Shown: positions 1-36,066 of the stretch, piece by piece
Layout: every line of letters begins with the position of its first letter
Position numbering within the stretch: the first letter of the stretch is position 1
Source: Dehalococcoidia bacterium UBA2247
Lineage (GTDB): Bacteria; Chloroflexota; Dehalococcoidia; UBA2247
Assembly: GCA_002347295.1 (NCBI GenBank)
Contig: DDXZ01000005.1
Coordinates: 27,537 to 91,536 of the forward strand
Reading direction: 5' to 3'
DNA length: 64,000 nt
The notes under the pieces: model-generated
Seen by the model: only the letters and a program-made list of their open reading frames with translations
Told to the model about the DNA's origin: nothing
The model's database searches: none
Program-made: the position numbers and the translations under genes

Positions 1-2321
1 CCTGCACCCTGTACGGTGACGTTGTTGTAGGTTTGACTTGCTCCAGCAAAGGTCTGTGCACTTGCATTAGAACCAGTATAAACAATAGTAGAGGTTTCTG
101 CATTAAAAGTTAGATTAGTTGCGTTAAGTTGCCACTTACTAGCGACAATATCACCATTATGTGTTAACGTAACAGTGCCAGAGCCTAAAGATAATGTTCT
201 GGTGGTAGTATAATCTGTAACAAAGAATCCACAAGTTAAGTCATTATCATTTAAATCTAATCCGCCAATAGCTAGTCTTACTTCTCTCCCTGTTTGAATA
301 CAACCATCACTAAGAGACAATGTTCCAGTAGGATTGTAAATATATAATCCGTTGAGGTCTTTACCGTTAGATGTTAAAGTATAATTACCTCTACCTCGCA
401 TATTGAGTGTTTTTGCGGAATGTGTCCATGTCATTCCAGATGCTACAGTTAAACTACCAAACACATTAATTGTATTACTCAGTGTTACCGTAGGTATTCC
501 CGTAAAGGTAATAGACTTCCCTATTCGTGGCATATCCACTGTTACTGTATGAGAGCATGAAACATCATCTTGAGGTAAAGGTACTCTGTCAGTCCCGACA
601 CCATCTTGCCATGTGGCTAGAGTTGACCAGTTACCAGTAGCATTGGAGATTTGAGCTGCTGCTGTGGTAAAGGTGATATTGGTATTCCCTTGACAATCTC
701 CTGAACCACCTGTGATAGCGGATAAATCCACCGCATTGGTAGCTGTAATATCTATAATATCCACGTTCTGTGAGCCAGTCCAGTTAGTGGCGGTTATGAT
801 TGCTGGTGTACCTAAAGTTGAGGACTGTACCAGAAGTCTATTGGTTGAGCTATTGCCTTTCATGGCAAAGGTTGTGCAGGTCAATGTAGTTCCCGATGTC
901 ATGGTTATGGTATCTGTCTTGGTGGCTGTACCATTTCGGGTAAAGACATCTATCCCTGTTGGACTTCCTGATACGGTATGAGCAGTACCATTGAGGTTGA
1001 TGTTGGCACCATTAAAATCCAAATTTCCTGCAGCCAGACTTCTAGTAGTCTTTATATTTATAGCAGCAGTATTCGCTGCAAAGGTAACGTTGGAACCAGT
1101 GTCATATTGAAAATCACCAATATTAAGTGTAGAAGTACCTAAGTTAAGAGTACGCGCATTAGCATAGTTAAGATTTAAGGCACCATCACCAGAAGTTAAT
1201 GTTAAGTTATGATTGTTGGTAGTAAATGTTCCTGTGGTCATAGAAAATCTACCAACTGATAAATCATCGCCTAACTGGAAAGTTTTATTATATTGCATTA
1301 TTAAATTATTTGTACTTATTATTTTTCCCGCACTAATAAATGTGCTATTTTCGGCAGGATACCAGTTACCAGTAAACGTGACATTCATGCCTACTATTAA
1401 GGTAACATTTCCGTAAAATGTAATACTTGAAGAACCTGCCAGTGTCGGTGTATTCGTTGCTCCCGCAAAGCTTAGAGAGAGACAGGAAGCGGCGGCATCT
1501 ACGCTCAATATGGCATTCGCCCCAGCTACCGATGCGGCATCTACATAAACCTCATCTGCATTAGTTGGTACTGATGCTCCAGTAGCACCACCGGAAGCAG
1601 CACTCCATGTTCCTGTGCTTGACCAATTAGATGTTGTAGCAGCGGGTAATATCGCATACCGGGGCGGGTCATATTCCGGTAAACTTAAATCTACATTCGG
1701 TCTGATTAACCGCTCTAATTCCAGAGCATCCAGTACGGCTTGCTGTTCAGGAGTTATTTCTATAGGTATTTCTTTTGTTTCAGTAACAACACTGTCTTTT
1801 TCATCTAATACAACATTACCTGATTCATCTAGTACAGGTACTTCTTTAACAGTTACCAGCTCCGGTATGGGTAAAAACTTCTGCTTTAATTTATCGCCCA
1901 TCCAGAAGCCGGTGTATCTATCCTCAAATTGCAGTACGGATAATATCTCAGTAGGGTAGGGAGTGCTGGCAGTAGCAGGGTATGATTTCAGGATTGTAGC
2001 AGCTTGTTCCGCTGTAATAACATTGAGTTTAGTCCCGCCTTGTTCGCCTGATGGCTTACTGGCAGCCGGTAAGGTGAAGATACAACGACCATTATTATCA
2101 TCAAAAAGCAGTATATTTAGCCCAGTTTGCGGGGCGTGTGTAAATGTACCATACCATCCATCAGAATATTTTATGGATACCGGGAACCATGTCTCGTAAT
2201 ATTGCACATCGGCTGCATGAGCCATCGGTACAACAAACCCAAATAATGAGAAACAGATGGCCAGAGCCAGTAATACTCTGATAGCCAGGGGGATTAAATT
2301 ACTTTTATACATCCCATTCAT
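1..2321 (-). CDS. Large secreted repeat protein, N-terminal part only (C-terminus beyond the window edge). It has a signal peptide (MNGMYKSNLIPLAIRVLLALAICFSLFGFVVPMAHA|AD) followed by T/N/G/S-rich repeats with a parallel-beta-helix/adhesin flavour.
   Basis: Hand translation of the minus strand from the ATG at 2321 (second ATG at 2312) stays open to position 1. A GGGAGG RBS sits at 2326-2331. The ORF is absent from the ORF track only because no stop codon lies inside the window. All + strand ORFs here are short and overlap it. Confidence 0.7.
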   Translation of the reverse strand, partial: MNGMYKSNLIPLAIRVLLALAICFSLFGFVVPMAHAADVQYYETWFPVSIKYSDGWYGTFTHAPQTGLNILLFDDNNGRCIFTLPAASKPSGEQGGTKLNVITAEQAATILKSYPATASTPYPTEILSVLQFEDRYTGFWMGDKLKQKFLPIPELVTVKEVPVLDESGNVVLDEKDSVVTETKEIPIEITPEQQAVLDALELERLIRPNVDLSLPEYDPPRYAILPAATTSNWSSTGTWSAASGGATGASVPTNADEVYVDAASVAGANAILSVDAAASCLSLSFAGATNTPTLAGSSSITFYGNVTLIVGMNVTFTGNWYPAENSTFISAGKIISTNNLIMQYNKTFQLGDDLSVGRFSMTTGTFTTNNHNLTLTSGDGALNLNYANARTLNLGTSTLNIGDFQYDTGSNVTFAANTAAINIKTTRSLAAGNLDFNGANINLNGTAHTVSGSPTGIDVFTRNGTATKTDTITMTSGTTLTCTTFAMKGNSSTNRLLVQSSTLGTPAIITATNWTGSQNVDIIDITATNAVDLSAITGGSGDCQGNTNITFTTAAAQISNATGNWSTLATWQDGVGTDRVPLPQDDVSCSHTVTVDMPRIGKSITFTGIPTVTLSNTINVFGSLTVASGMTWTHSAKTLNMRGRGNYTLTSNGKDLNGLYIYNPTGTLSLSDGCIQTGREVRLAIGGLDLNDNDLTCGFFVTDYTTTRTLSLGSGTVTLTHNGDIVASKWQLNATNLTFNAETSTIVYTGSNASAQTFAGASQTYNNVTVQGA

Positions 2322-2330
2322 ACTACCTCC

Positions 2331-2531
2331 CTATCTTATCCTCCACACCGCTTTACCAAAGAGATATAGCGCTATTCCTAAGACCGCTATTCCTAAGGTT
2401 AAATTTGTTTCGACCAAAGGATAACCAACAAAGGCGACCACAAAGGCGCCTACAAAATATAAAGTACGGTCTCTGCTCCAGATAGCCAAGGCGCTGATTC
2501 CTATAACTAAAATTGCTTCTGCCTCTGTCAT
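2331..2531 (-). CDS. Small two-TM membrane protein (66 aa) translationally coupled to the upstream ATPase.
   Basis: Two hydrophobic helices; 4-nt overlap with the Zot-like gene; same operon orientation. Confidence 0.55.
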   Translation of the reverse strand: MTEAEAILVIGISALAIWSRDRTLYFVGAFVVAFVGYPLVETNLTLGIAVLGIALYLFGKAVWRIR

Positions 2532-3376
2532 TTATTTAAATCCTTCATAACCTGCATAATACCTTTAACCGGCATATTGGCATCGGCCATCCGCTGCGCT
2601 ATCTGTTGTTTCTGTTCGATGGTTAATCCTGAGGCAGGATTGCTAACTACCGGTACCTGGGCATTTCCTAAACCTACATCAGGGGTGCCGGTATCCTGAC
2701 CAATAACATTAAAACTATTATTAGCGTCAACGGTTAATTTCCGTTTTTTCAGCTCTACCGATACCATTCCTTCTCTCGGATCTACTACGCCGTAAGTGTC
2801 ATAACATTCCCATATAGGAGTAATATTGGCAGAGCTCATGGACCATAAAGAACCAGGGACTCCTGTCTGAAATCCCTTCATATCATAAACACTGAGGTTA
2901 ATCTGATGGCCCCGGGGGATATGATTCTCTTTACCCCATTGTGTGAAGTAAACATCCCAGCAATCAAAAACATAATGCGTCATCCAGCGTAAGCGGGGAT
3001 TGAGAAAATCAAAGTTCTGGATAGTTCCCAGCATACCCAGGTTACGCTTACGGCGCTGTCCCGCTATCCAGTACAGGATGCGGGATAATACGGTATTCCA
3101 GCTCTCACTACCGGCAAAATTTTGCAGCTCGTCTATATCAATGAGGGTATCTTTTAACTCATCACCCATTTTGATAAACTCATCTATTTGTATCGGCTCC
3201 GAACGGACTTCAAGGTAGCTGACAGTGTGCCCGCCCTGGCGTTTGGGAATTTTTGCATGACATTCATACCCGGGGAATGTTCGTACTTTCCCCCCCATAT
3301 ACATATGCAAGCAGGATAAGACTGTCATCATAGCAGTCTTACCACCACCCTCTGGCGCCTGAAATATTGATATCAT
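2528..3376 (-). CDS. Zot/pI-like P-loop NTPase (filamentous-phage assembly ATPase family).
   Basis: N-terminus MISIFQAPEGGGKTAMM closely mirrors the Zot N-terminus (MSIFIHHGAPGSYKT: SIF...APxGxxKT Walker A). A Walker B-like TLIDIDELQ follows (Zot FLFIDECG). The gene sits in an operon of small membrane proteins. Confidence 0.6.
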   Translation of the reverse strand: MISIFQAPEGGGKTAMMTVLSCLHMYMGGKVRTFPGYECHAKIPKRQGGHTVSYLEVRSEPIQIDEFIKMGDELKDTLIDIDELQNFAGSESWNTVLSRILYWIAGQRRKRNLGMLGTIQNFDFLNPRLRWMTHYVFDCWDVYFTQWGKENHIPRGHQINLSVYDMKGFQTGVPGSLWSMSSANITPIWECYDTYGVVDPREGMVSVELKKRKLTVDANNSFNVIGQDTGTPDVGLGNAQVPVVSNPASGLTIEQKQQIAQRMADANMPVKGIMQVMKDLNK

Positions 3377-3795
3377 TGTGCCTTTTCCTCAACCTTAGGA
3401 TTAATAGTGCGCCGGCTGGGGATAGCAGAGGGAACCATAATACCGGTGCCTCCCATCAGCCCCTGCCATCTATTTATACCGCCAATAGCCGGCTTCCCAT
3501 CGAGTAACAGCTCTAATTCCGTAAGCCCATCCTCATCACCAAATTCCACACAACGAGCTAAAAAGGAAATCGCAGCATTTAATTCCTGGCGGTTATCAAA
3601 TATTGTATGTGCTATGGCATCCCGGATATCTTTGGCATGGTGCATGAATTCTTTTGCCAGGTTAGCGTTGCCTTCCATCGGGCGGAACATATTATTAAAA
3701 ACGTTCTGGTCCAGTACCCCCGCCTTACTTTTATTGGCAAAGATATTATTAGAGCTGTTTTTTTGTCCGTGAAATCTATTATATAATCCAGACAT
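3373..3795 (-). CDS. Hypothetical soluble protein (140 aa) in the virus-like operon.
   Basis: ORF overlaps downstream gene by 4 nt (ATGA); no recognisable motif. Confidence 0.5.
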   Translation of the reverse strand: MSGLYNRFHGQKNSSNNIFANKSKAGVLDQNVFNNMFRPMEGNANLAKEFMHHAKDIRDAIAHTIFDNRQELNAAISFLARCVEFGDEDGLTELELLLDGKPAIGGINRWQGLMGGTGIMVPSAIPSRRTINPKVEEKAQ

Positions 3796-4836
3796 TTATA
3801 CCCCTTTTATATTGCTGAATATCAAATACAGGAAAAATAACAATATGCCGACAAGCCCCACCATTAACCCTAATTTAATTTTCTGGAGCCTATCGCTATT
3901 GAGATTAAAGAGAATAGCAATCTCCCGGCATCTTAAAGCGCGGTATAATTTCTCCGGGCTAATAAGCAGCGGGATTTTTTTAGCATCTTTTAGTTCCTTA
4001 CTTTTAGCGGGCTTAATCTCATCATCAAAATTAGTAATATAAGGATCGTACGGCCGGTATTCCATTTCACCATTTTTATTTTTGATATGCTTTACCAGGT
4101 AAACCCATCTATTTTTATATCTCCAGAGAGAGCCCATAGCACTTTCTAAATTGCCTTCATGCCAGCCGGAATACGGGTCGAGAATAACTGCGGGATATTT
4201 ATTCTCCTGAGGTTTATCTGTCCTACTCTTCCGGAAGATATTTTTCAGTGAGCTCAGTAAGTTAACAAAACTATTCTGATTTTTGTTCTTATTATTACCG
4301 GGCGGGGGTGCTTCTTTTTTTTCGGCTTTCTTTTTTTCTTCTACCGCGACCGCCATCATAATAAAGGCAGGATTTAACATACTAAAATCCAGTTTTTCTA
4401 CCTTTAATTTTCCTGCCTGTATCAATCCCGCTACAGTTAGTAAGCAGATGGTAACACCAAGAACAAGAACCAGAATGGTAATATAATCATGGAATTTTTC
4501 TCTTTTTGCGTTTTTAGCATTTTCCGCCTGGGCTTTTTCCCGGGCTTCTACGGCAATAGCCTGTATAGGCTTTACCTGGCGCGGTATTTTGCCATCCAGC
4601 GCGAGGGGAGTGGAATCATACTCATCTATGATTTGATAAACACGATTTGTGCCACGTTTCGGGATAAGTGTATGCGGAGTCTGCCCCCATGCCCTCATCT
4701 CTTTCTCGTTGATTAAGGAATCCTTCATAATACTCTGGTTGATATCGAGAATTTGATGATCTCTGGTAAGTAGTAAACATTTTTGTTTTTTTAATTGTCC
4801 CATACTTTCCTTTCCGCATAGGGGCAGATACCCCAC
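3796..4836 (-). CDS. Membrane protein with a central and a C-terminal TM helix and a Lys/Glu-rich linker (possible minor coat or adsorption protein). The true start may be the internal MGQLKK (~4806), which has an AAAGGAAAG RBS.
   Basis: ORF; hydrophobic segments ITILVLVLGVTICLLTVAGLI and GLMVGLVGILLFFLYLIF; abuts next gene. Confidence 0.5.
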   Translation of the reverse strand: MGYLPLCGKESMGQLKKQKCLLLTRDHQILDINQSIMKDSLINEKEMRAWGQTPHTLIPKRGTNRVYQIIDEYDSTPLALDGKIPRQVKPIQAIAVEAREKAQAENAKNAKREKFHDYITILVLVLGVTICLLTVAGLIQAGKLKVEKLDFSMLNPAFIMMAVAVEEKKKAEKKEAPPPGNNKNKNQNSFVNLLSSLKNIFRKSRTDKPQENKYPAVILDPYSGWHEGNLESAMGSLWRYKNRWVYLVKHIKNKNGEMEYRPYDPYITNFDDEIKPAKSKELKDAKKIPLLISPEKLYRALRCREIAILFNLNSDRLQKIKLGLMVGLVGILLFFLYLIFSNIKGV

Positions 4837-4845
4837 AATTAACTT

Positions 4846-5322
4846 TTAGAATCCGCCTTTGCCGGGTTTTCCCAGTCCGGTCCAGCTCAGTAATCCACCG
4901 CCAAAAAGGCTGGAAACAAAGAGGACCAGAGGAGCAATGGCTCCCACGGAAGCTAATCCGGTGTAATCGGCAATATGGGCATCAGTAATAATGGTGTAGG
5001 CTGATGCTAATATTGTGGGAAAGAGAAGTAGCATAATAACTATGGCAATCAGGCCGCCTACTATCATTATGATGTTTTTCATACCGAGGTCTTTTCCGCT
5101 GCCTTTAGCGCCCTGGAAGACCATCAAGCCTCCGCCAAAAATCATAGAGACAAAGATAATCAGGGGAGCGATAGCGGCCACAGAACTCATGCCGGTAAAC
5201 GAGGCAATGTGAGCATACGTTAAAATGCTCTGTGTGGCAGTAAGCACCATCGGATAGATAACAAAGGCGATTACGATGGCGATTACTCCACCAACTATCC
5301 TGAGTATGCGCTGCATATTCAT
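4846..5322 (-). CDS. Four-TM membrane protein built from an internal tandem duplication (two TM-A/TM-B units). Each TM-B carries a P-L-[IV]-[IL]-F-V-x-x-[IL]-F-G-G-G-L motif.
   Basis: Repeat units VAAIAPLIIFVSMIFGGGLMVF and VGAIAPLVLFVSSLFGGGLLSW; RBS AAGGAAA upstream. Confidence 0.6.
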   Translation of the reverse strand: MNMQRILRIVGGVIAIVIAFVIYPMVLTATQSILTYAHIASFTGMSSVAAIAPLIIFVSMIFGGGLMVFQGAKGSGKDLGMKNIIMIVGGLIAIVIMLLLFPTILASAYTIITDAHIADYTGLASVGAIAPLVLFVSSLFGGGLLSWTGLGKPGKGGF

Positions 5323-5382
5323 TTTTATTTTCCTTTCTTTATATTTTTTCGACTACGTTTTAATTAACTACGTTTTAATTAT

Positions 5383-5838
5383 TTATCTACGCCCGCGGGC
5401 TGCATCAAAGATGGCAAGACCACCGCCGAAGATGAGCATGACGAAGATGATTAACGGAGACATTCCCACAATACTACCCAGGCCGGTAAAGTCAGTAGTA
5501 GCATCGTAATCATAGACCGCTGTTAATGTCCGGGTATCACTGGCATTGAGACCGGTTACATTCAGTGTATTAGTCGCTGGCGTATAAGTATTAGATACCG
5601 GGGTATCCAGTACATTATCCGAGGTCACGGTTACACGACCGGCATCATCCTGCCAGGCATCCTCAGTCAGTACTACGTCGGCATCTGTCACACCGACACC
5701 GGTTACTACCGCTGCAAAAGCATCTGTCTGCGGATCCGTCTGGACATCATGCGTGGAATCAGTGATTAGCGGGAACATAATGAAGGCAATCATAATCATG
5801 ATTACTCCAACCACTACTTCCGTCACTTTTTTACCCAT
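5383..5838 (-). CDS. Two-TM membrane protein paralogous to the 4846..5322 product (same C-terminal PLIIFVMLIFGGGL motif). It carries an ~85-aa T/D-rich, probably surface-exposed insert.
   Basis: ORF with AGGGAGG RBS; N-terminal TM VVVGVIMIMIAFIMFPLI and C-terminal TM IVGMSPLIIFVMLIFGGGLAIF. Confidence 0.6.
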   Translation of the reverse strand: MGKKVTEVVVGVIMIMIAFIMFPLITDSTHDVQTDPQTDAFAAVVTGVGVTDADVVLTEDAWQDDAGRVTVTSDNVLDTPVSNTYTPATNTLNVTGLNASDTRTLTAVYDYDATTDFTGLGSIVGMSPLIIFVMLIFGGGLAIFDAARGRR

Positions 5839-5903
5839 TTTCCTGTGTCCTCCCTTCTTTAAATCTAGCAGCCACTTTCATTGTAAAACATGACATATTA
5901 ATA

Positions 5904-5943
5904 TTTAGTAACATATTTGATACTAAATACAGTATGCTATAAT
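5904..5943 (+). promoter_or_regulatory. Divergent control region. A perfect inverted repeat TTTAGTA-N10-TACTAAA (candidate operator) overlaps a TTGATA-N16-(TG)cTATAAT promoter that drives the HTH gene.
   Basis: Read directly from the sequence at 5904-5927 (palindrome) and 5916-5943 (-35 and extended -10). The region lies between the divergent leftward membrane-protein operon and the rightward regulator gene. Confidence 0.45.
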
Positions 5944-5973
5944 ATAATATATACTATAGGTAGTGGAGGTGGC

Positions 5974-6243
5974 ATGAAGAGTAAACGGGATATAGTATTC
6001 TTAACTACTAAAGAGGCAGTATTAAAACCTTTTGAGTTTCAGCAAGCCTGCGATTATCTTATTAAGAATGGGTTAAAGCCTGCTACCATTTGCCGTTCGC
6101 TGGGTATATCACGCATGAATTTATACCGTTACCGCACAGGTCAGTTAATACCTAATTGGGTAGTAGGGGACACAATCGTACAATGTGCCAAAAAAATGCA
6201 GGCGGGGGAACTTGCTTTCCAATATCTACAAAGGAGAGATTGA
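5974..6243 (+). CDS. Small HTH DNA-binding protein (excisionase/regulator-like). The real start is probably the ATG at 5974 (MKSKRD...) behind GGAGGTGG, not the 5917 ATG given in the ORF track.
   Basis: Helix-turn-helix-like segment ATICRSLGISRMNLYRYRTGQ; RBS 5965-5972. Confidence 0.55.
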   Translation: MKSKRDIVFLTTKEAVLKPFEFQQACDYLIKNGLKPATICRSLGISRMNLYRYRTGQLIPNWVVGDTIVQCAKKMQAGELAFQYLQRRD

Positions 6244-6579
6244 ATGTCATTACCAGAGAACACAGAACAATATATTAATACTGCTCAAAATGAAGCTGAG
6301 CGCTCCGATAGAATTAAGGAAATAGCGGAACGGCAGGAACAGGCATTTAATACCTGGGAACTTCCTAATAAAATAGATATCGATTCGTCTTTTAAAGAAC
6401 TAAATCCTTTAATATCCATTTTGGCCAATAATATGATGCAATGGATTCCCGGGCTGCCTGATTTTATGAAAAAAGCAGCGGTTAACAATACCAAAGAGAT
6501 AATATACCTCGGGTTTAAATTAGGTTATTTTATGGGGAGAAATTATGAGGAAATTCCTGCGGTATTTAAGGATATTTAG
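6244..6579 (+). CDS. Hypothetical protein (111 aa)
   Basis: ORF follows the regulator gene directly; no motif recognised. Confidence 0.4.
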   Translation: MSLPENTEQYINTAQNEAERSDRIKEIAERQEQAFNTWELPNKIDIDSSFKELNPLISILANNMMQWIPGLPDFMKKAAVNNTKEIIYLGFKLGYFMGRNYEEIPAVFKDI

Positions 6580-7771
6580 TGTTCTCCTGTTATTAATAGT
6601 ATTATTCCCATTACCGGCGCTAGCTGTAGCTGCTCCAGACCTGATGGAAATACAGGATGTGGAGGTATTCCGTCATTTATTAGAGGATGATGACTACCTG
6701 GTAATTATTACCTATAATATTGAATATACGGTATTACCCAGTGAGACCGCAGACAACCTATTTATCATCCGCTTAATGGATGGCGTTACTGAATTAGGAT
6801 CTAATATGCCATATCCTTACATCAATTATGGTTACGGCATAGGATGTATGTCATTATACTGGGATGCGGCCACAGCGCCCACCTGGGGGACATTGTATGA
6901 TGTTAGATTAGAGGGCAATCCTCTCATGTTTGCACCGCCGCTGGCTCCCATCATATATACACTACAAGCCGGGGACTTTGTGGCCAGTACAGATCCTGAT
7001 GTGCAAAAAACTTTTTTGGCCAGTAGAATCAGAAGCATTGCCGATGATATGCAAACGTTATTCGGTGCCGGTTATGAAATGCTGGATAGTACTGATAGCG
7101 GAACTTACCTTAGCGCCCTGGGGGAATATTATTTTTATGGAGCGGTCCCGGGTATTCAGGTAATGTGTCCGGAATTATTCATATTACAGAAAACTACACC
7201 GGAATGGGAGGACCGCGACTGGGGAGACCCCCAGGTAGATGTATTCCCTGTTACCACCGGGATAGCAGAAACATCCGCTACAGTCACGTTAACGTATAAA
7301 AATTATCCCGGTAATACTAATGGAATTACCGTTACCAGTAGCGAACCGGCGGATATCCCGGTAGTGAGTACCTATAATGATGATCAGAAAACAGTATTAA
7401 TTACCGGACTGGATAATAACAATACCCGCAACCTCACCGTGAGCTACCGCTATAATGCCAAAGCCGATGAGTTCGAGTCACGCTGGGACCATACTATAGT
7501 ATCCGATGCTTTTAGCGGACTAGCGGAATTAATGGGCGGCATTGCAAAAATGACCGCTTCCAGCCTACTCATTATCGCCCTGGCCCTGGTGCCGTTTATG
7601 ATCTGTTATAAGAAATTCAAGCAGACAGATGCCGGCTTAGCTATGATGGACCCTGTAGTATTAGGCGGCTGGCAGGCGGGATTATTTGCCAGCTCTTACC
7701 TCGGATTACTCTGTATTGTGTCTGTATTTATCCTGGGCTATTACTTCTTTTATAGAGGAACTAACGGATGA
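6545..7771 (+). CDS. Secreted protein with an N-terminal signal peptide and C-terminal multi-TM anchor (408 aa)
   Basis: Signal peptide MRKFLRYLRIFSVLLLLIVLFPLPALAVAAP; C-terminal hydrophobic segments; 4-nt overlap with next gene. Confidence 0.55.
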   Translation: MRKFLRYLRIFSVLLLLIVLFPLPALAVAAPDLMEIQDVEVFRHLLEDDDYLVIITYNIEYTVLPSETADNLFIIRLMDGVTELGSNMPYPYINYGYGIGCMSLYWDAATAPTWGTLYDVRLEGNPLMFAPPLAPIIYTLQAGDFVASTDPDVQKTFLASRIRSIADDMQTLFGAGYEMLDSTDSGTYLSALGEYYFYGAVPGIQVMCPELFILQKTTPEWEDRDWGDPQVDVFPVTTGIAETSATVTLTYKNYPGNTNGITVTSSEPADIPVVSTYNDDQKTVLITGLDNNNTRNLTVSYRYNAKADEFESRWDHTIVSDAFSGLAELMGGIAKMTASSLLIIALALVPFMICYKKFKQTDAGLAMMDPVVLGGWQAGLFASSYLGLLCIVSVFILGYYFFYRGTNG

Positions 7772-9516
7772 GATTATTACGATTATTATGCCTGGCAATA
7801 CTCATTTTATTACTGGCCCCGGCGGCTCTGGCGGCTACCGCCTATACCGCGGAGATTCAGGTCACGGAAACAGGCCTGGCCGGGTATGTTATGCTGCCGG
7901 TAATAGTGGATTGTAATAACCAGGAGCTGGCCGACAATTATTACATGGATTCTGATGGGCTGGATACGCTGGTTAAATATAATGCCATATCACTACCGCA
8001 TATGGTGGCGGATGACAAATTATTGTTCGCCTCTTTATTACCCACCTCCAATACCAAAACATTTATTTACAGTACCGCTAATACACCGGCATTGAGCGCC
8101 TTTTATATTATTACCGGGTATGATGGTTATTTTACTATTCCTGACAACGCCGCCCTGGAGCCGGGAGCAGATTTTACCTATACTTTAACTGCATACACTG
8201 ATACCACTACGGGAACCAATAAGAGATTGATATTCAAAGACCAGGCGGTTAATTTATCCGTAACCGCGGACCATGAAATCACCGGCCGTGTTTATACTAG
8301 CGCTCCCGCCAGTGAAACAAGTTATACCGCCGGCGCTGATAGTAGCGGTACCGTTAACGGCACTATAGCAGAAGCACAACTATTTACTGTAGGAGGAGCC
8401 GATATTACCCTGGAATCTGTGGAGTTACAATTAGTAGGTAATGCTACGCCCAGCGGAACGATAACCGTATCCATCCGGACCGTAGCCGGGGGATTACCTA
8501 CCGGGAGCGATTTGGTATCCTTTACCTGTAATGCTTCCGATATAAGTAATGCGGGTTGGGCATGGTATGAATTTTCCTTCTTTAATAAAATAACACTGAC
8601 TACCGCGACACAATACGCCATAGTATTAAAAGCATCTGCGTTAGGAGCAGTGACTTACTGGCGCTCTGATGCTACGGCGCCGGCCTATGCCGGCGGGACC
8701 CGTTGTTCTTCAAATAATAATGGCGCCACATGGACTAGTGCTGGAACTGTAGATTATATGTTTACCGTCTATAAACCGGGAACCACGGTGGAAGTAAGTT
8801 ACAACGATGTCACTAATATGGCCAGCGGGGAACATGACATAATACTCGACATCAATGCGGGAAATCTGGAATTAACCATAGATGGCACCCTCCGGGATAA
8901 TGCTGCTATGGGGGGAGGAAGTATCTATGATTCCGCCTATGATTATTACATCGGGTACAATAACTGTTTACCTTATATTGAGTCCTTTGATATCGATATC
9001 AGCGGCGCTCCGGTCGCCGGCTATGCTCCGGTAGATATCATCAGCGGCACTACTTTACCCGATGAGGTAGGTACTTATGATGGCACCATTACCTGGGGCA
9101 GTAATCCGGCGGGGGTATCAGTAGTATTGGAATCTTTACTCCCGGTAGCAGCGGCAGAGGCCGCCGGATATACGTCTTCCACACCCTCTGGACCTATCAG
9201 CGACGCTCCTGATACTCCTGATATGTCCCAGCCGGGCATCGCCACCACACTACCCGGAGCAGATGTTATTAATGAAATGATGGATGCCGGAGACATCCCT
9301 AAGGATTTATTCTGGTTGTTTCTGGCCTTTGGATTAATGATGGCTATAGGCTACGGCGTATATGCTCTGACCCATAGTTTACTGGCGGCGGAAATTGCTA
9401 TTATTATTGTGGGAGTATTCTTTATGCTCAATAATGTGGTAACCTGGCCGGCTATACCTTTAAATATACTCTTTGCCGCCCGCAATGTAGTGATAAAAGA
9501 GCGCTACGGCTTATGA
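7768..9516 (+). CDS. Large secreted Thr-rich protein with a signal peptide and C-terminal TM anchor (582 aa); spike/adhesin-like
   Basis: Signal peptide MRLLRLLCLAILILLLAPAALAATA; T/S/G-rich ectodomain; C-terminal TM helices. Confidence 0.55.
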   Translation: MRLLRLLCLAILILLLAPAALAATAYTAEIQVTETGLAGYVMLPVIVDCNNQELADNYYMDSDGLDTLVKYNAISLPHMVADDKLLFASLLPTSNTKTFIYSTANTPALSAFYIITGYDGYFTIPDNAALEPGADFTYTLTAYTDTTTGTNKRLIFKDQAVNLSVTADHEITGRVYTSAPASETSYTAGADSSGTVNGTIAEAQLFTVGGADITLESVELQLVGNATPSGTITVSIRTVAGGLPTGSDLVSFTCNASDISNAGWAWYEFSFFNKITLTTATQYAIVLKASALGAVTYWRSDATAPAYAGGTRCSSNNNGATWTSAGTVDYMFTVYKPGTTVEVSYNDVTNMASGEHDIILDINAGNLELTIDGTLRDNAAMGGGSIYDSAYDYYIGYNNCLPYIESFDIDISGAPVAGYAPVDIISGTTLPDEVGTYDGTITWGSNPAGVSVVLESLLPVAAAEAAGYTSSTPSGPISDAPDTPDMSQPGIATTLPGADVINEMMDAGDIPKDLFWLFLAFGLMMAIGYGVYALTHSLLAAEIAIIIVGVFFMLNNVVTWPAIPLNILFAARNVVIKERYGL

Positions 9517-9573
9517 TGTTTACTACCTTTTCTTAACCGGATAACGCTATCCCTGGCAATCCGGCATAATGGA

Positions 9574-9601
9574 AAGCCCCGGCGCTTTACCCGGGGTTTT
9601 T
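9574..9601 (+). terminator. Rho-independent terminator: GC-rich hairpin (CCCCGG...CCGGGG) followed by a T-run
   Basis: aagccccggcgctttacccggggttttt, read directly; sits 60 nt after the 582-aa ORF at a convergent gene junction. Confidence 0.6.
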
Positions 9602-9603
9602 CA

Positions 9604-9915
9604 TTATAAATAGGACCATAATTGATATTTCACAATAAAATAAACAGCGGCACCAATAATCAGCAAGGGAAGAAAAATACTACTTAGATATTTAGTGATG
9701 TCGATTACAGTATCCCTGGGGGAGATGCCATCATCTTTGTCATGGATGTTTTTCAGTAGATTGCGCTGTATTTTCTCATAAGAGCGGTTAAATTTACGCA
9801 GCTTTTTATCACTTCGCTCTAATTTAAGCCGAGATAACCGTTCCTGAGTACATTTATAACAATTACAGTAAGGCGGGTGTTTATCATGAGTATAATCTCG
9901 ATCTGATACAGGCAA
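9604..9915 (-). CDS. Small protein with a CxCxxC zinc-binding motif and a C-terminal TM helix
   Basis: ORF; PYCNCYKCTQ motif; hydrophobic C-terminus IFLPLLIIGAAVYFIV. Confidence 0.45.
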   Translation of the reverse strand: MPVSDRDYTHDKHPPYCNCYKCTQERLSRLKLERSDKKLRKFNRSYEKIQRNLLKNIHDKDDGISPRDTVIDITKYLSSIFLPLLIIGAAVYFIVKYQLWSYL

Positions 9916-10009
9916 GGCTAATCCTTCCAGCCCCCGGATTTACCCCACACCACATTTGTTATTAATACCACAACAATAACTTAATATCAATATTACGTAT
10001 AAAATAATA

Positions 10010-10038
10010 TTGACAAATATTATAGACAGGTGTATATT
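10010..10038 (+). promoter_or_regulatory. Sigma70-like promoter TTGACA-N17-TATATT upstream of the XRE gene
   Basis: Hexamers read directly at 10010-10015 and 10033-10038; 20 nt upstream of ATG 10058. Confidence 0.4.
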
Positions 10039-10057
10039 CGTATTGGATATAAAATAA

Positions 10058-10261
10058 ATGAGTAAATTAAAAGAAATCAGGGAAGCGAAAGGGCTAACTC
10101 AGGTAGAGTTAGCGGTAAAGTCAGGAGTAGCATCAATGACAATAAGCCGGATTGAAAGAGGAGCAGTAACAAAACCAGCTTATGCTACATTAAAAGTTCT
10201 GGCCGATGCGTTAGGTGTGAGCCCTGAGGACATCCGGAACGGATATTATGCTCAAAATTAA
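10058..10261 (+). CDS. XRE/Cro-CI family HTH transcriptional regulator (67 aa)
   Basis: LTQVELAVKSGVASMTISRIERG helix-turn-helix signature. Confidence 0.75.
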   Translation: MSKLKEIREAKGLTQVELAVKSGVASMTISRIERGAVTKPAYATLKVLADALGVSPEDIRNGYYAQN

Positions 10262-10334
10262 GGATTGCACTATTATGTCATCTATGATATTACATAACAT
10301 ATATAGTGCGAACCACTTCGTGCCTGCTTTAATA

Positions 10335-11513
10335 TTACATAATATCACCACATAATAATGTTGACCCGGATAACATTCTGGTAATGGTTGTTACCAGTTC
10401 TTTCAGTCCCCACTTTTTCGCTGCTGAAATTAAAACTATAGACTCGGCATCAGCATTTTTATTCTGATAATATTGCACCAGATTATTAAAACCAGCTTCG
10501 TCCTGGGACTCCGGTAATAAGTCTACTTTGTTATAAACTGTTAAAATTGGCTTTTCGCTCAGATTAAGCTCCTTAAGCAAGCTTTTTACCGTTCCAGCCT
10601 GTTCTAACGTATTTTTATGCGTAATATCGATAACATGTAATAATAAGTCAGCCTCCTGTAACTCTTCGAACGTTGCCCGAAAGGCCAGTACCACCGCAGG
10701 AGGCAGTTTCTGAATAAATCCCACCGTATCTGTTACCAGCACTTCAAACCCTCCTGACAGCCTGATGCGCCTGGTGACCGGATCAAGAGTGGAAAACAGG
10801 CTGTTGCTTACCATAACTCCTGCGCCACTGAGGGCATTCAATAAGGTACTCTTACCGGCACTGGTATAGCCCACCAGAGAGACCACAGGGATGCCCGCTC
10901 TTTCTCTCTTCTGACGATAAAGCGTCCTGTGAGTCCTCACTTTTTCAATATCTTTTTCAATACGACTGATTCTCTGCCGTATTAGCCGTCGGTCGGTCTC
11001 TAACTGCGATTCTCCCGGACCACGTGTACCGACACCACCACCCAGCCTCTCCAGATGGCTCCATTGCCCCACAAGCCGGGGCAGTAAATACTGGTGTTGT
11101 GCCAGTTCCACCTGTAATTGTCCTTCACGAGTCTGCGCTCTCCGGGCAAAAATATCGAGAATAAGAGCCGTTCTATCTATTACTTTCACATGGGTAACCT
11201 GTTCCAGGTTCTTTTGCTGTAACGGAGACAGTTCATCATCAAAGATAATAACTTCGCTGCCGGTACTCTGTTGTAATGCCACTAAATCATCCAGTTTCCC
11301 CGTACCAATATAATATGGCGACGGTCTGGCCACTTTTTGCATAATCATACCCGCCACTTTCACTCCGGCAGATATGGCTAATTGCTGCAACTCCACCAGG
11401 GAATCTTCCAGAGACCATGATGACCTGTCATCCTTGAGACGTACTCCCACCAGTATCGCGTGCTCTAAATCATTCTCTTTAACAGTTTTCAATCGTGTAT
11501 TAATAGATATCAC
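10335..11513 (-). CDS. hflX: GTPase HflX
   Basis: G1 motif GYTSAGKST, DTVGF, and an NKVD-like G4 motif; N-terminal HflX domain. Confidence 0.85.
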   Translation of the reverse strand: MISINTRLKTVKENDLEHAILVGVRLKDDRSSWSLEDSLVELQQLAISAGVKVAGMIMQKVARPSPYYIGTGKLDDLVALQQSTGSEVIIFDDELSPLQQKNLEQVTHVKVIDRTALILDIFARRAQTREGQLQVELAQHQYLLPRLVGQWSHLERLGGGVGTRGPGESQLETDRRLIRQRISRIEKDIEKVRTHRTLYRQKRERAGIPVVSLVGYTSAGKSTLLNALSGAGVMVSNSLFSTLDPVTRRIRLSGGFEVLVTDTVGFIQKLPPAVVLAFRATFEELQEADLLLHVIDITHKNTLEQAGTVKSLLKELNLSEKPILTVYNKVDLLPESQDEAGFNNLVQYYQNKNADAESIVLISAAKKWGLKELVTTITRMLSGSTLLCGDIM

Positions 11514-15654: not shown

Positions 15655-16166
15655 CTCCTCCGGAAAATATTTTTAAAATATTATTATTGAAACTATTTGT
15701 TTCAACCCACCTGACCTATTAAATATTATACCCCGCGCCCTGTCTGTGCAATCCCTAAGTATGATTATCACAAGACATCCTGTGGTGAACATTCCCCTAT
15801 CAGGAAATACGAGAAAATGATAATTTCTCAAGTAATAACATTATGTCAATTTAAATACCCCTCTTAAAATCAACAGTATATTTAAAGATTTGATTTTTCA
15901 ATTCTAGTTTTAACATTTGAGCTTTTCCTTTAGATTTAACAATAGCGAGAATCCAGAGTAGGCATACTACCCTTTATTACGAATTTCTTATCAGCTACAG
16001 GTTAAATTCCTCCAACTGCGCTCTATCTCATTCCGGCATTTTGGGTAAAACAGGCACAATTCTTTGATATAGTATTCAAAAGATAATATAATACATCTAG
16101 TATTTATGGTTTGAGATATTTGATATTATTTATTAAATACAATGTGCGTATGGAGGTATAGTTTTA

Positions 16167-16532
16167 ATGAAATGCCCGAATTGTGGAGCCGAATTGAGGC
16201 TGGAGCTCATTCTGGAAGCAAACGGTGCTCTCTCCAAAACAAGTGCTAAAGGTCATGAAATCGTTTTCCGGATGAAGGGAATGCCTTATACCCTCTCTGA
16301 CGATGATATCGTAGAAGCAGCGAAAAATTTAAACTGGCCGGAAACAATCAGAGACTATTACGTTGAACTGAAAGATAGAAAAGGAATAATTAAAGAATAT
16401 CCCATCAAGCAGGTAGTGCGAGAGGCACTACGGACAGTACGCAAGAATGTAATATCGGAAGACTACTTTACTTCACAGCGGGCAAAACAAATTCTGACCA
16501 AACTACAGTTCACGGTAAAAACCAAGACATAA
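16167..16532 (+). CDS. Hypothetical protein with an N-terminal CPxCG zinc ribbon (121 aa), in an AT-rich island
   Basis: MKCPNCGAEL...; local GC far below the window average. Confidence 0.45.
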   Translation: MKCPNCGAELRLELILEANGALSKTSAKGHEIVFRMKGMPYTLSDDDIVEAAKNLNWPETIRDYYVELKDRKGIIKEYPIKQVVREALRTVRKNVISEDYFTSQRAKQILTKLQFTVKTKT

Positions 16533-16971
16533 AAAATTATTATACCTGGTTGAATTCCTTCTTCAATAATTAAAACATACTTCCGCCATCAGCTCTTTAA
16601 AGGCTGAAGAGGATATTTTTTAGCCTACAATATTTATTAGGATCAACAGTACCATAGATATGACACAGAGATATTTACAGAGTTTAAACATGGATGATGT
16701 GACTAAATTCCCATTTATCCACTCTTGTTCATTAGTCGTACTCTCAATCCTACTTCTATATTAATAATGTTAATCAGCACACACAGCTGATTTAATTTTA
16801 TTTATAAATACCCATAAATTAATGAGTACCACATTTTACTGGACCTTTATTCCAAGCATCTTATTAAAGGCTTTTCTATGAACCATTCGCTTGCCATATT
16901 TAGGATTATTTGTTTCAATAACAAAACTACTAGCACCTTTCCGCTTAACTTTTATTTTACACTTATCAATA

Positions 16972-17766
16972 TCAATCAAACCTGAGTAACCAATTAAATC
17001 CAAAGTGATCTAGGCCAATATCAAGTAAACAAGGCGGACGCTCTTTCATCTCTAAAACATATGATGTGCTTCCAAGTGGTTCTCTTTCTTTTAAATCTTT
17101 GGGAATTTCTATACGGAATTTATCAATCTCGCCAAAATCCTCAGATATCACTCTTAAATCCCACCAAGAACCAAGAGGAATTAACGGCATCGGGTCTGCA
17201 ATAGCAGCACAGATATCTCCAACAACTTTCATGTGATTCAAAGGTTTCCAATTTGGATGACTAATGTTCAGTTCTGGATATGCATCTCTCCTTATACTTT
17301 CGCAAATCACAGCAACTCTCAGAGGCATACCTCTTGACAGATTAATACCAAGACTGAAACCGCTAGGTGTATAGCCAACGATATTCTTTGAATACTCGTT
17401 TAACACCTCATCTATTGTAGATTTTGTTCGTACCCCAAATAATCCACTTGAACGGAAGTAACAAAACGGTTTATAAGCACGAGAATCATAGGGTATTTTA
17501 CCTGTACTCATGCAATATACTCTCGGTATGATTGTATTAAGCCACATATTATTTCTTATTTCTACACAATGTATTAAGAGAAATCCATCACTACAAAAAT
17601 TAGTAAAAGTTACTAACCGCACGGTTAACAAAGGTTTTCTAAGTACTTTCCTGATAGCTTTTTCAACATGAAAAGTAAAGTTTGGATTACTAGCAATTAA
17701 TGTAGCAATAATCCCGCTTATGATTCCAGCGAGTATACCGATAAAAAAACCTGACCCAAATGCCAT
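16972..17766 (-). CDS. Hypothetical N-terminally membrane-anchored protein (264 aa). The reading frame may continue to about 16847 through a frameshift.
   Basis: N-terminal TM FFIGILAGIISGIIATLIA; AT-rich; a K-rich open frame continues in the -1 frame after the stop. Confidence 0.45.
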   Translation of the reverse strand: MAFGSGFFIGILAGIISGIIATLIASNPNFTFHVEKAIRKVLRKPLLTVRLVTFTNFCSDGFLLIHCVEIRNNMWLNTIIPRVYCMSTGKIPYDSRAYKPFCYFRSSGLFGVRTKSTIDEVLNEYSKNIVGYTPSGFSLGINLSRGMPLRVAVICESIRRDAYPELNISHPNWKPLNHMKVVGDICAAIADPMPLIPLGSWWDLRVISEDFGEIDKFRIEIPKDLKEREPLGSTSYVLEMKERPPCLLDIGLDHFGFNWLLRFD

Positions 17767-17979
17767 CAGGCATACCTCCTATTAGCAGGTTATATGGTAC
17801 GATATATTGCATTGTATTCTTGGCAAGGTGATTTCTCAAGATTATAAATTTTGCTAAAGCTAATAAAGATATTAATCACTAATAGAACTTGCCATACTGT
17901 ACCCATTTAAAGTTGTGTCCACAAGTATGATTCACAATTAGCTATTTTAAAGCTAAATAGTTAACTTGTTAATAATTAA

Positions 17980-32805: not shown

Positions 32806-33924
32806 TTGCTTATGATTAATGACATTAAATATTGGAATGCATTTAATCTCATACCAGGTATTGGAAGAGTAAAATATTCCCTCCTCGAGAAGTATTTTGG
32901 TGTACTGGAGAAGGCGTGGATAGCGACATCTGTTGAACTTAGAGAAGCCGGACTCGACCCGAAAACGGTAGATTCCATAATTACTGGTCGAAAAAACATT
33001 TCTCCGGAACAAGAACTGGAAAAGTTGCATAAATTAGATATTAAAATATATTCATGGAATGATGAGGGTTATCCTGCCCGGCTCAAAGAAATAGATGATA
33101 AACCACCGGTACTTTATGTAAAGGGAGCATTAATTTCTGAAGATGAGTGGTCAATAGCAGTTGTTGGTACCAGAAGAGCAACGGTATATGGTCGCCAGAT
33201 AACTGATGATATTGTTGGTAATTTATCACGCTGTAAAATTACTATTGTGAGCGGCCTGGCGAGAGGTATAGATACTATTGCACATAAGACTGCACTTAGC
33301 GCCGGTGGAAGGACTGTTGCCGTATTTGGATGTGGTTTGGATATGGTTTATCCTGCAGATAATCTTGATTTGGCACGCAGGATTTGTGAGTGTGGCGCAC
33401 TGGTAAGTGAATATCCTCTGGGGACACGACCACGTGCAGATAATTTTCCGCGGCGTAATCGTATTATGAGTGGTATGAGTCTGGGAGTACTTGTAATAGA
33501 AGCTAATGAAAGAAGTGGAGCTCTCATAACTGCTCATCAGGCTCTGGAACAAAATAGAGAGGTTTTTGCTATTCCGGGAAGTGTATTATCCCCGGCAAGT
33601 CGTGGCACGAACCGTCTCATCCAGGAAGGGGCCAAGCTTGTATTAAATTATAACGATGTGCTGGAAGAATTGAATCTCTGTATTACAGAGCAACAGTCTG
33701 AGATGCAGGAGTATAGTTATGTTACCGATACTGAAAATATGATATTAAAGTGTCTGTCGAGTGAAGCAACACATATTGATGAAATATGTCATCGTAGTGA
33801 GCTTCCCATATCAACAGTAAGTAGTCTTCTTTCTGTTATGGAGTTACGAGGGATAGTAAAACAGCTCGGGGCGATGCAATATATAATAAACAAGGGGATA
33901 AATTATACTGGTTCGAGTAGGTAA
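32806..33924 (+). CDS. dprA: DNA processing protein DprA/Smf
   Basis: Rossmann-like DprA core (IAVVGTRRAT...VSGLARGIDT...); the track start is TTG; ATG at 32812 is an alternative. Confidence 0.85.
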   Translation: MLMINDIKYWNAFNLIPGIGRVKYSLLEKYFGVLEKAWIATSVELREAGLDPKTVDSIITGRKNISPEQELEKLHKLDIKIYSWNDEGYPARLKEIDDKPPVLYVKGALISEDEWSIAVVGTRRATVYGRQITDDIVGNLSRCKITIVSGLARGIDTIAHKTALSAGGRTVAVFGCGLDMVYPADNLDLARRICECGALVSEYPLGTRPRADNFPRRNRIMSGMSLGVLVIEANERSGALITAHQALEQNREVFAIPGSVLSPASRGTNRLIQEGAKLVLNYNDVLEELNLCITEQQSEMQEYSYVTDTENMILKCLSSEATHIDEICHRSELPISTVSSLLSVMELRGIVKQLGAMQYIINKGINYTGSSR

Positions 33925-33926
33925 TA

Positions 33927-36038: not shown

Positions 36039-36066
36039 TTATGCCAGGAAAAAAGTGAGATAGAAC

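Follow-up and report, generated by a model that had tools for sequence, protein, structure and literature searches.

A mobile IME1-like element, probably a temperate non-tailed virus, between ftsZ and hflX of a Dehalococcoidia bacterium

Integrated elements of the IME1 lineage of Dehalococcoidia, reportedly first noted by Molenda et al., are by sequence comparison the closest described system to the locus analysed here, closer than classical Inoviridae. A preprint by Nesbo et al. from September 2026 was the first to describe IME1s as viruses, proposing that they are double-stranded DNA (dsDNA), non-lytic and probably filamentous viruses of 20.9–28 kb that occur both integrated and circular (bioRxiv 10.64898/2026.09.15.751708). 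According to the same preprint, their layout comprises a pI-like ATPase (HOG04), transmembrane (TM) proteins and, on the opposite strand, a repressor and three signal-peptide/TM genes (HOG08–HOG11), together with a serine resolvase (HOG12), an archaeal-type primase-helicase (HOG13) and a terminal repressor; IME1s account for 56–79% of the reads in DNase-treated KB-1 viromes, where filaments co-occur in electron micrographs, and IME1-like elements are stated to occur in other Chloroflexota (bioRxiv 10.64898/2026.09.15.751708). We analysed 64,000 nucleotides of Dehalococcoidia bacterium UBA2247 (GenBank assembly GCA_002347295.1, contig DDXZ01000005.1, positions 27,537 to 91,536), the whole of which we call the window. 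We consider it probable that the 22,919-bp element inserted between the host genes ftsZ and hflX, whose right-hand 45% occupies window positions 1–10304, is a temperate, non-tailed and virus-like member of the IME1-like lineage.

The element lies between two 13-bp direct repeats, starting 12.6 kb left of the window and ending at window position 10304, and has a guanine-plus-cytosine (GC) content of 42.5%, compared with 40.5% for the host part of the window. An exact look-up of its ATPase returned a 100% identical protein on 22 contigs, and the 10 matches listed come from 10 samples, at least one of which is labelled a hydrocarbon metagenome. A 92.9-kb Joint Genome Institute (JGI) contig is identical to the window across the 13.4 kb compared and continues leftward, and a second look-up yielded a contig that reaches further, L096, which serves as the leftward extension of the element (L-numbers denote the contigs compared, taken from metagenomes, metagenome-assembled genomes (MAGs) and IMG/VR). 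The core ACATAACATATAT forms attR at the right boundary and, in identical form, attL at L096 4524–4536; in the 81-kb reconstruction it occurs exactly twice, once per boundary. Contig L098, from another sample, fuses window 9673–10304 (100% identity) to L096 4524–5577 (97%) with the 13 bp in common, and L003 independently shows the same junction of right and left ends over one copy of the core, both representing attP. The empty site, attB, is seen in L105, which fuses window 12000 to 10292, on the side of hflX, via the 13 bp to L096 4536 to 3976, on the side of ftsZ, and in L104, in which hflX and ftsZ are likewise joined across the core. All four states, attL, attR, attP and attB, were recovered from public data. 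Because these attP and attB contigs exist, the element is mobile and is not a core host operon.

A chromosomal, non-mobile cell-envelope or secretion operon would account for the many membrane and secreted proteins and for the absence of an integrase within the window; the bounding repeats, the joined-end and empty-site contigs, and the phage-type modules and integrases carried by related elements reduce its probability to a negligible level, and we ruled out a core host operon on the basis of the two attB and two attP contigs. An earlier reading made from the sequence of window positions 1–9603, here called the original prediction, had named such an operon, conserved in all related genomes, as the alternative to an integrated element; the empty site joins hflX directly to ftsZ. 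Its proposal of an integrated element is borne out by the direct repeats and the attP and attB contigs, as is the suspected extension beyond the left edge of the window, where the operon continues with 1033- and 120-amino-acid (aa) genes. Its boundary at 9603 has to be moved to 10304, the att site that it had missed in the window is attR at 10292–10304, and the existence of attP and attB forms speaks against the degenerate state that it had considered. A search to the left for an integrase or att site, which it had advised, gave attL and, in place of a tyrosine integrase, a serine recombinase domain only.

As a separate observation, the core in the empty site of L105 (2654–2681) carries an A-to-C change (ACAGAACATATAT), and that of L104 is unchanged; the altered core could be an allele that resists integration.

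Within the window, the element consists of a tightly packed leftward operon, which runs left from 5838 and leaves the window at its left edge, and of a divergent arm. Its genes and sites, together with two host genes, are as follows.
1–2321, minus strand: 1148-aa protein, N-terminal 773 codons in the window; signal peptide, Thr/Asn/Gly-rich repeats, two C-terminal TM segments
2331–2531, minus strand: 66-aa protein with two TM segments; ATGA overlap with the ATPase gene, translationally coupled
2528–3376, minus strand: 282-aa soluble P-loop ATPase, equivalent of IME1 HOG04
3373–3795, minus strand: 140-aa soluble protein, its gene always immediately upstream of the ATPase gene
3796–4803, minus strand: 335-aa protein (346 aa from an upstream GTG at 4836), two TM segments
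4846–5322, minus strand: 158-aa protein, four hydrophobic segments
5383–5838, minus strand: 151-aa protein, paralogue of the 76-aa unit described below
5902–5929: inverted repeat TATTTAGTAACA / TGATACTAAATA in the divergent promoter region; 12-nt arms, 92% complementary, 4-nt spacer
5974–6243, plus strand: 89-aa helix-turn-helix (HTH) protein; weak Pfam matches to HTH_7, HTH_23 and HTH_29
6244–6579, plus strand: 111-aa protein, called as an open reading frame (ORF)
6545–7771, plus strand: 408-aa protein; signal peptide, two C-terminal TM segments
7768–9516, plus strand: 582-aa protein; signal peptide, C-terminal TM anchor
9577–9596: GC-rich, terminator-like hairpin between the converging 582-aa and 103-aa genes
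9604–9915, minus strand: 103-aa protein; Cys-rich N-terminus, C-terminal TM segment
10058–10261, plus strand: 67-aa regulator of the XRE/Cro-C1 type, rightmost gene of the element; matches Pfam HTH_3 and related families
10292–10304: attR core ACATAACATATAT, right boundary of the element
10335–11513, minus strand: host hflX, first host gene right of the element
36067–36981, plus strand: host XerC/XerD-type tyrosine recombinase, 304 aa; TIGR02224 346.8 bits, above cutoff

All ORFs, motifs and the paralogy named in the original prediction are present (ORF list, Walker motifs, and blastp at 2e-10 between the 151- and 158-aa proteins), and the palindrome that it had placed in the divergent control region corresponds to the inverted repeat at 5902–5929.

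The morphogenesis block is conserved and syntenic in two metagenome contigs (L091 and L094), in a 26.6-kb contig of a Dehalogenimonas MAG (L102) and in two IMG/VR contigs, L106 and the 27.4-kb provirus L107. The source of L106, IMG taxon 2013843002, is the KB-1 Dehalococcoides enrichment metagenome (PMC6610324). At least nine genes, homologous and syntenic, are shared with the IME1 elements, and the conserved block comprises about ten genes. The ATPase is 35% identical to its counterparts in L106 (KB-1) and L107 over 278–286 residues (4e-49) and 33% identical to that of L102; the 151-aa protein, encoded by the most conserved structural gene of the lineage, reaches 51% with L106/L107 and 47% with L102. 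Identities to L106/L107 are 27–29% for the 158-aa protein, 29% for the 120-aa protein and 24–25% for both halves of the 335-aa protein. With L102, the 120-aa protein shares 38%, and this contig also has homologues of the N half of the 335-aa protein, the 158-aa protein and the methyltransferase. The 154-aa resolvase is 32% identical to that of L107 and 28% to that of L102, and the XRE regulator is 39% and 43% identical to the HTH proteins of L107 and L102, respectively. Homologues of the 140-aa protein occur in L091 (35%), L094 and L102 (29%); these and the homologues of the 158-aa protein and of both halves of the 335-aa protein keep their gene order in the relatives. The 408-aa protein (44% identity in L091, 41% in L094, 30% in L102, 31–32% in L106/L107) and the 582-aa protein (27% over the full length in L102, 26% in L107) are homologous to the 339/338-aa and 578-aa proteins of L102/L107. 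Among ATPase relatives with a named source, that of Dehalogenimonas comes nearest; for the resolvase, the nearest sequences belong to Dehalococcoidia MAGs. Both L102 and L107 end in a tyrosine integrase of ~320 aa.

In its overall plan, the present element agrees with the IME1s: its 22.9 kb fall within their 20.9–28 kb, it is found integrated and as joined ends, and it encodes a pI-like ATPase and, next to a divergent regulator, two small hydrophobic paralogues. The divergent arm runs from the 89-aa HTH protein to the 111-, 408- and 582-aa proteins, with the third conserved gene (120 aa) present but relocated, and a serine resolvase, a D5-type helicase (compared by its domains) and a terminal XRE repressor complete the correspondence. 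It differs from the IME1s in several respects: (i) the resolvase is a bare catalytic domain of 154 aa, compared with 227–229 aa, and lacks any C-terminal DNA-binding domain; (ii) with respect to its resolvase and methyltransferase genes, the element has the central block in inverted orientation, an arrangement that the preprint has for strain 195 only; (iii) the 76-aa gene is tandemly fused (158 aa), as are two ~150-aa genes (335 aa); (iv) the 120-aa gene is relocated to the other operon; (v) the large genes downstream of the ATPase gene are unrelated; and (vi) the element comes from methanogenic cultures that degrade hydrocarbons, and its host has a GC content of 40.5%. We regard the element as a variant of the very recently described IME1-like kind and not as categorically new.

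The 282-aa ATPase carries a Walker A motif, APEGGGKT (residues 7–14), and a Walker B motif, LIDIDE (78–83), and a hydropathy scan, by which the membrane topology of all element proteins was assigned, shows no hydrophobic segment in it. As a single query the protein is nearly silent: a word-indexed homologue search returned only itself, a scan of IMG/VR found nothing, and comparison with PHROGs and the PDB gave no informative family and no relative. The Dehalogenimonas homologue recovers two contigs from IMG/VR (L106 and L107), and a full HMMER scan of 1.84 billion representatives yielded 346 relatives, the best at 40% identity. In a 95-sequence family alignment (A1), K13 is invariant and D82 and E83 are nearly so, and the 14 closest sequences (A2) share the signature GPEGxGKT ... 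FPGYE ... IDE ... QRRKRNLG. In the PDB, the family profile scores best against the Neisseria Zot N-terminal domain, 2r2a (E = 1.7e-6), from Walker A through the arginine-rich region; 44 of the 95 family members match PF05707 (Zot; best 2.8e-6), 22 match the PHROG 'protein I of M13' (best 2.4e-07) and 12 'Zot-like toxin' (best 4.4e-09). An AlphaFold2 model built from A1 has a predicted local distance difference test score (pLDDT) of 88.9. Compared by Foldseek with viral models, it matches Inoviridae Zot first (1.9e-10) and the 37.2-kDa protein of Acholeplasma phage L2 at 2.1e-7, with packaging ATPases of the A32/STIV type lower; in the PDB, 2r2a comes first (4.2e-6), followed by STIV2 B204.

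From profiles and the predicted fold, we assign the ATPase as a distant relative of the Zot/pI family at superfamily level and not as a Zot member by curated thresholds. This assignment holds because family-profile and structural evidence overrule the lack of a Pfam match for the single protein. The Zot/pI-like identity in the original prediction therefore stands as a distant relationship by profile and fold and fails as a direct Pfam assignment; the absence of a significant Zot match, which the original prediction had named as refuting it, is literally the case for the protein alone and is outweighed by the same evidence.

The PHROG phrog_20922, 'head morphogenesis', is matched by 47 of the 95 family members (best 3.7e-15), more strongly than the M13 protein I and Zot PHROGs. 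A distant ATPase relative (P0153, 286 aa) is encoded in L095 (6100–13400) by a small prophage of classical inovirus-like type adjoining ftsY; besides numerous short ORFs, this prophage has a Phage_CRI Rep and a tyrosine integrase. The position of P0153 within an inovirus-type prophage supports a link to filamentous phages and makes the divergence of the present element evident.

The 66-aa protein with two TM segments, encoded immediately downstream of the ATPase gene, is 42% identical to a 67-aa protein at the same position in L091, and its slot is taken by 72-, 126- and 124-aa genes in L094, L102 and L107. It may be the membrane partner or anchor of the soluble ATPase, in the manner of a 'split pI'.

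A different use for the same ATPase is conceivable, in which the locus is an integrative element of non-viral nature, mobilisable or conjugative, with the ATPase as an FtsK/TraB-like translocase and the surface proteins as mating adhesins. The original name of the IME1 family, 'integrative and mobilizable element', the placement of its ATPase within a wider FtsK-HerA-related group (both bioRxiv 10.64898/2026.09.15.751708), the resemblance to packaging or translocating ATPases and the large anchored surface proteins are in line with this. However, none of the element proteins was recognised as a relaxase, a coupling protein or part of a type IV secretion system, the best ATPase matches are to Zot/pI and not to FtsK/TraB, and IME1 DNA is strongly enriched in the DNase-protected cell-free fraction (bioRxiv 10.64898/2026.09.15.751708), so that we consider this explanation quite improbable.

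Many of the proteins encoded by the element are membrane proteins. In the 158-aa protein, a unit of ~76 aa is duplicated in tandem, and this unit consists of an N-terminal hydrophobic segment, a short loop, a second hydrophobic segment and a basic C-terminus; the halves of the protein align with a single 76-aa protein of L091 (47% and 54%) and with an 81-aa protein of L094. By hydropathy, these units resemble the layout of inovirus major coat proteins, which have a signal peptide, one TM segment and a basic C-terminus, and we consider the 158-aa protein a candidate for the main structural or coat protein. The 151-aa protein is a paralogue of the 76-aa unit with an inserted domain of ~90 residues, which is also present in the 408-aa protein (residues 35–125 of the former recur in the latter at 1.6e-13). 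The 335-aa protein is a fusion of two ~150-aa, C-terminally anchored proteins encoded by separate genes in relatives, its N half being 37% identical to a 156-aa and its C half 43% identical to a 150-aa protein of L091. The 140-aa protein has no hydrophobic segment and no Pfam or PHROG family.

An N-terminal hydrophobic segment and C-terminal TM anchors were detected in the 408-, 582- and 1148-aa proteins, which are candidates for a virion envelope or adsorption protein, a virion surface protein and a virion-surface or host-recognition protein, respectively. The 582-aa protein shows weak matches to Laminin_G_3 (Pfam) and phrog_5986, and its single-sequence AlphaFold2 model (pLDDT 36.7) is unusable. 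The 1148-aa protein matches no Pfam or PHROG family. Neither it nor the neighbouring 1033-aa protein has a detectable homologue at the equivalent position in L091, L094 or L102, which identifies this slot as variable; the lack of homologues for the large genes past the ATPase gene fits the expectation for host-recognition functions.

The left part of the element was read from L096, from the left boundary toward the window, bringing the element proteins screened to 31 in total. In this order, it comprises the following genes.
Leftmost genes: 126 aa and 124 aa
L096 5586–6098: 170 aa, DnaG-type zinc ribbon
Next: 600 aa, D5_N + DUF5906 + Pox_D5, a superfamily 3 (SF3) helicase
Next: three small ORFs
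Next: 260 aa, DUF5131
Next: 166 aa, MmcB/Hjc-like nuclease
Next: 88 aa and 67 aa
Next: 154 aa, serine recombinase, catalytic domain only (PF00239, 4.4e-32)
Next: 62 aa
Next: 265 aa, N6/N4 DNA methyltransferase (orphan)
Next: 86 aa and 74 aa
Next, opposite strand: 120 aa (two TM segments), 1033 aa (Lys/Glu-rich, soluble), then the 1148-aa gene entering the window

The 600-aa protein matches the helicase two-thirds of phage primases, and scans with Pfam and PHROGs revealed no rolling-circle Rep family among the element proteins. A Rep is detectable by these scans, because Phage_CRI was found in the distant relative L095. Since a D5-type SF3 helicase, a DnaG zinc ribbon and an orphan methyltransferase are encoded and a rolling-circle Rep is not, we infer that the genome would replicate as dsDNA. 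The replication and regulatory modules differ between co-occurring variants of the element: in L098 (1689–3674), a Phage_rep_org_N gene and a 313-aa gene replace the zinc-ribbon and D5-helicase genes, and in L003 (125–984), a 75-aa HTH gene and a 165-aa gene replace the XRE and 103-aa genes. These modules are exchangeable cassettes around a fixed core of ATPase and membrane proteins. A metagenome scan with the 88-aa protein found nothing, and a scan of genome contigs with the resolvase returned 80 resolvase loci, none with other element genes.

Two further observations concern this region. The zinc ribbon of the 170-aa protein is 46.5% identical to the N-terminus of host DnaG (window 52987–54813), a similarity that suggests capture from, or mimicry of, the host primase. 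The segment at L096 8709–10004 encodes a DUF5131 protein (radical-S-adenosylmethionine-like, of the phage Gp37/Gp68 type), a PD-(D/E)XK-like MmcB/Hjc nuclease, the orphan N6/N4 methyltransferase and a Lar-like small protein, which may constitute counter-defence cargo.

This gene content bears on whether the element is a canonical inovirus prophage (Tubulavirales), with a circular single-stranded DNA (ssDNA) genome, rolling-circle replication, a pVIII-like coat and pI-driven extrusion. Several features are shared with Inoviridae such as Ff, Pf and CTXphi: an ATPase with Walker A at the extreme N-terminus and Zot as the best match by profile and by fold, small hydrophobic proteins that are coat candidates and include pVIII-like 76-aa units, pIII-like proteins with signal peptide and C-terminal anchor, and a temperate, site-specific lifestyle. 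The L095 prophage, with its Phage_CRI Rep and integrase, points in the same direction, as does the assignment of IME1 contigs to 'Densinoviridae', a candidate family, by Roux et al. 2019 (Sf_3; PMC6813254). However, inovirus genomes are circular ssDNA of ~5–15 kb (PMC6813254), whereas the present genome is, at 22.9 kb, two to four times larger; in place of a Rep it carries dsDNA-type replication and methylation genes (D5-type helicase, DnaG zinc ribbon, DUF5131, nuclease and methyltransferase); and, unlike the TM-bearing pI, its ATPase is soluble, accompanied by a separate partner with two TM segments, and does not match PF05707 by itself. We therefore consider a canonical inovirus highly improbable. 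An inovirus in the strict sense, as the original prediction had favoured, is not upheld, for reasons of size, replication genes and the missing Rep; the broader proposal of a non-tailed, membrane-associated virus fits the gene content.

Two other virus groups share parts of this organisation. Plasmaviridae are represented by Acholeplasma phage L2, a dsDNA, integrating, non-lytic virus with membrane-associated structural proteins; the likeness consists of the one structural match of the ATPase model noted above (Foldseek 2.1e-7), and L2 differs in its size of ~12 kb, its wall-less Mollicutes host and its own integrase. Fuselloviridae (SSV1) and Pleolipoviridae have in common with the element small hydrophobic structural proteins, anchored spike-type proteins, a P-loop NTPase and exchangeable replication modules, but their hosts are archaeal. 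Structural matches of IME1 HOG00/01 to SSV1 VP1 have been described (bioRxiv 10.64898/2026.09.15.751708); a PHROG scan of the 151- and 158-aa proteins gave no VP1 family match, and a literature search returned no paper linking Zot with pleolipoviruses. A tailed prophage (Caudoviricetes) was rejected, as Pfam and PHROGs gave no match to a terminase, portal, HK97-fold capsid or tail protein.

With no capsid, terminase, portal or tail match among the element proteins (Pfam, PHROGs), a satellite or phage-inducible island also has to be weighed, which would be packaged by a helper virus and would use the ATPase/membrane module for superinfection exclusion or surface remodelling. The absence of a recognisable capsid gene agrees with this, and the lack of its own integrase implies some dependence on functions supplied in trans; a satellite was, moreover, the earlier reading of IME1s and, as the preprint says, is not fully excludable for them (bioRxiv 10.64898/2026.09.15.751708). 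On the other hand, a block of ~10 genes around a morphogenesis-type ATPase, retained at 25–51% identity across distant hosts, is hard to square with accessory cargo, and the IME1s of KB-1 show no consistent link to tailed proviruses and are not called by SatelliteFinder (bioRxiv 10.64898/2026.09.15.751708). We consider a satellite unlikely.

Several points weigh against the reading as a temperate, non-tailed virus of the IME1-like lineage, which we nevertheless consider probable. The ATPase alone has no PF05707 match at E ≤ 1 and no Pfam family below E = 0.1, and tblastn of this protein against 50,697 phage records gave no match. Its structural matches are moderate (TM-score by target 0.58–0.64), and genome-packaging ATPases of icosahedral viruses score only slightly below Zot in the fold search. 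The attP junction contigs could stem from tandem copies instead of free circles; site-specific recombination is implied either way. A tyrosine recombinase (HOG02) is located at one end of 21 of 21 IME1s (bioRxiv 10.64898/2026.09.15.751708), unlike in the present element, which has none. Finally, our knowledge of the element comes from its sequence, the virome and filament data for the closest system come from Dehalococcoides IME1s, and for these the genome is not yet tied to a particle type (bioRxiv 10.64898/2026.09.15.751708).

As to the recombinase that integrates and excises the element, none of the 31 element proteins matches Phage_integrase (Pfam), tblastn with the L102 and L107 integrases has host xerC (window 36067–36981) as its sole match, and the largest non-coding gap in the element measures 186 bp. 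The host recombinase, encoded 26 kb from the element, exceeds the NCBIfam thresholds for XerC as well as for XerD and shares 30% identity with the integrases that the IME1 elements in L102 and L107 encode; it belongs to a dprA-topA-xer cluster (window 32806–36981). On the minus strand, attR reads GGTTCGCACTA TATATG TTATGTAATAT. Compared with the arms of E. coli dif, attR agrees at 17/22 positions, the top site on both strands of the 81 kb, the next best sites (six) reaching 15/22; attP agrees at 16/22 and attB at 15/22, the latter equal to the background maximum. An identical 13-bp core is more typical of tyrosine than of serine recombinases. The GC skew at attB tracks the gene strand and gives no terminus signal. 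Beyond the left boundary lie host ftsZ, rpmH, rnpA and yidD, and rpmH-rnpA-yidD, a group usually near the origin, is 2 kb from the att site, which weighs against a true dif there. In L091, L094, L102, L106 and L107, no att core or dif-like motif rose above background.

Site-specific integration and excision at the 13-bp core would be carried out either by a host Xer-type enzyme or by the element's own 154-aa serine recombinase. A host Xer-type enzyme acting on dif-like att sites is our tentative first candidate, at somewhat less than an even chance; the serine recombinase, perhaps with a separate DNA-binding partner, is possible to a lesser degree, and the small share that remains falls to a recombinase supplied by another element. 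The fuller proposal, that the element represents an integrase-less IME1 branch which, like phages of the CTXphi type, uses a Xer-type tyrosine recombinase of its host to integrate and excise at a dif-like site, is possible but rather doubtful. Das, Barre and colleagues reportedly showed that IMEX elements (CTXphi, VGJphi, TLCphi) integrate via host XerCD at dif. Like these, the present element has no integrase gene of its own, resides in a host that encodes XerC/D and has att sites of dif-like layout; unlike them, its attB reaches only 15/22, the GC skew shows no sign of a terminus, and the element itself carries a serine recombinase domain. If host Xer is used, the element would join an inovirus-style lifestyle (Zot-like ATPase, small hydrophobic coat proteins and Xer hijacking) with a 23-kb dsDNA-replicating genome, would add a 'split pI' of soluble ATPase and 2-TM partner as well as a tandem-fused coat gene, and would tie the lineage closer to inovirus biology.

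For the virus-like element, we envisage a life cycle in which the small hydrophobic proteins of 151 and 158 aa and the anchored proteins of 408, 582 and 1148 aa would enter the cytoplasmic membrane, the 66-aa partner would dock the ATPase there, the ATPase would drive loading of the element DNA, and a filamentous or pleomorphic particle would be extruded or budded without lysis in an ATPase-driven process. The 89-aa HTH protein with the operator-like palindrome, together with the terminal XRE regulator, would control the lysogenic switch. The relatives have been described as being released, with no evident lysis, into a cell-free fraction protected from DNase (bioRxiv 10.64898/2026.09.15.751708).

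The locus shows this morphogenesis block in another host, which has a low GC content and comes from methanogenic cultures that degrade hydrocarbons, IME1 detail having come so far from Dehalococcoides and Dehalogenimonas only. It shows that the tyrosine integrase is dispensable for mobility in the IME1 lineage and, with all att states available in public data, could provide a second experimental system for linking genome to particle. It also bears on the question of whether Zot-type extrusion machines became coupled to dsDNA genomes in bacteria.

The remaining features of the window concern regulation and cargo. The 89-aa HTH gene, whose ATG at 5974 is preceded by GGAGGTGG, has a conserved position in L091, L094, L102 and L107 and is the positional equivalent of IME1 HOG08; its product is a candidate regulator, encoded divergently from the morphogenesis operon, and the inverted repeat at 5902–5929 is a candidate operator. 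A generic promoter scan did not exceed the shuffled expectation overall, and its best promoter-like site upstream of the XRE gene lies at 10010–10038. The 111-aa protein has no family match in Pfam or PHROGs, and the 103-aa gene is variable cargo, a 165-aa gene standing in its place in the variant L003. The spacer between the 151- and 158-aa genes contains a perfect tandem repeat of 2 × 15 bp (ACTACGTTTTAATTA, 5352–5381). In L005 (JGI 3300002220), a deletion of ~61 bp in the 582-aa gene (window 9065–9125) leaves ORFs of 438 and 97 aa. In the host part, window 16000–18000 has a GC content of 34.8%, compared with ~42%, with a 27-bp tandem repeat nearby (15881–15941), between pgk and a tRNA-Gly/Pro pair.

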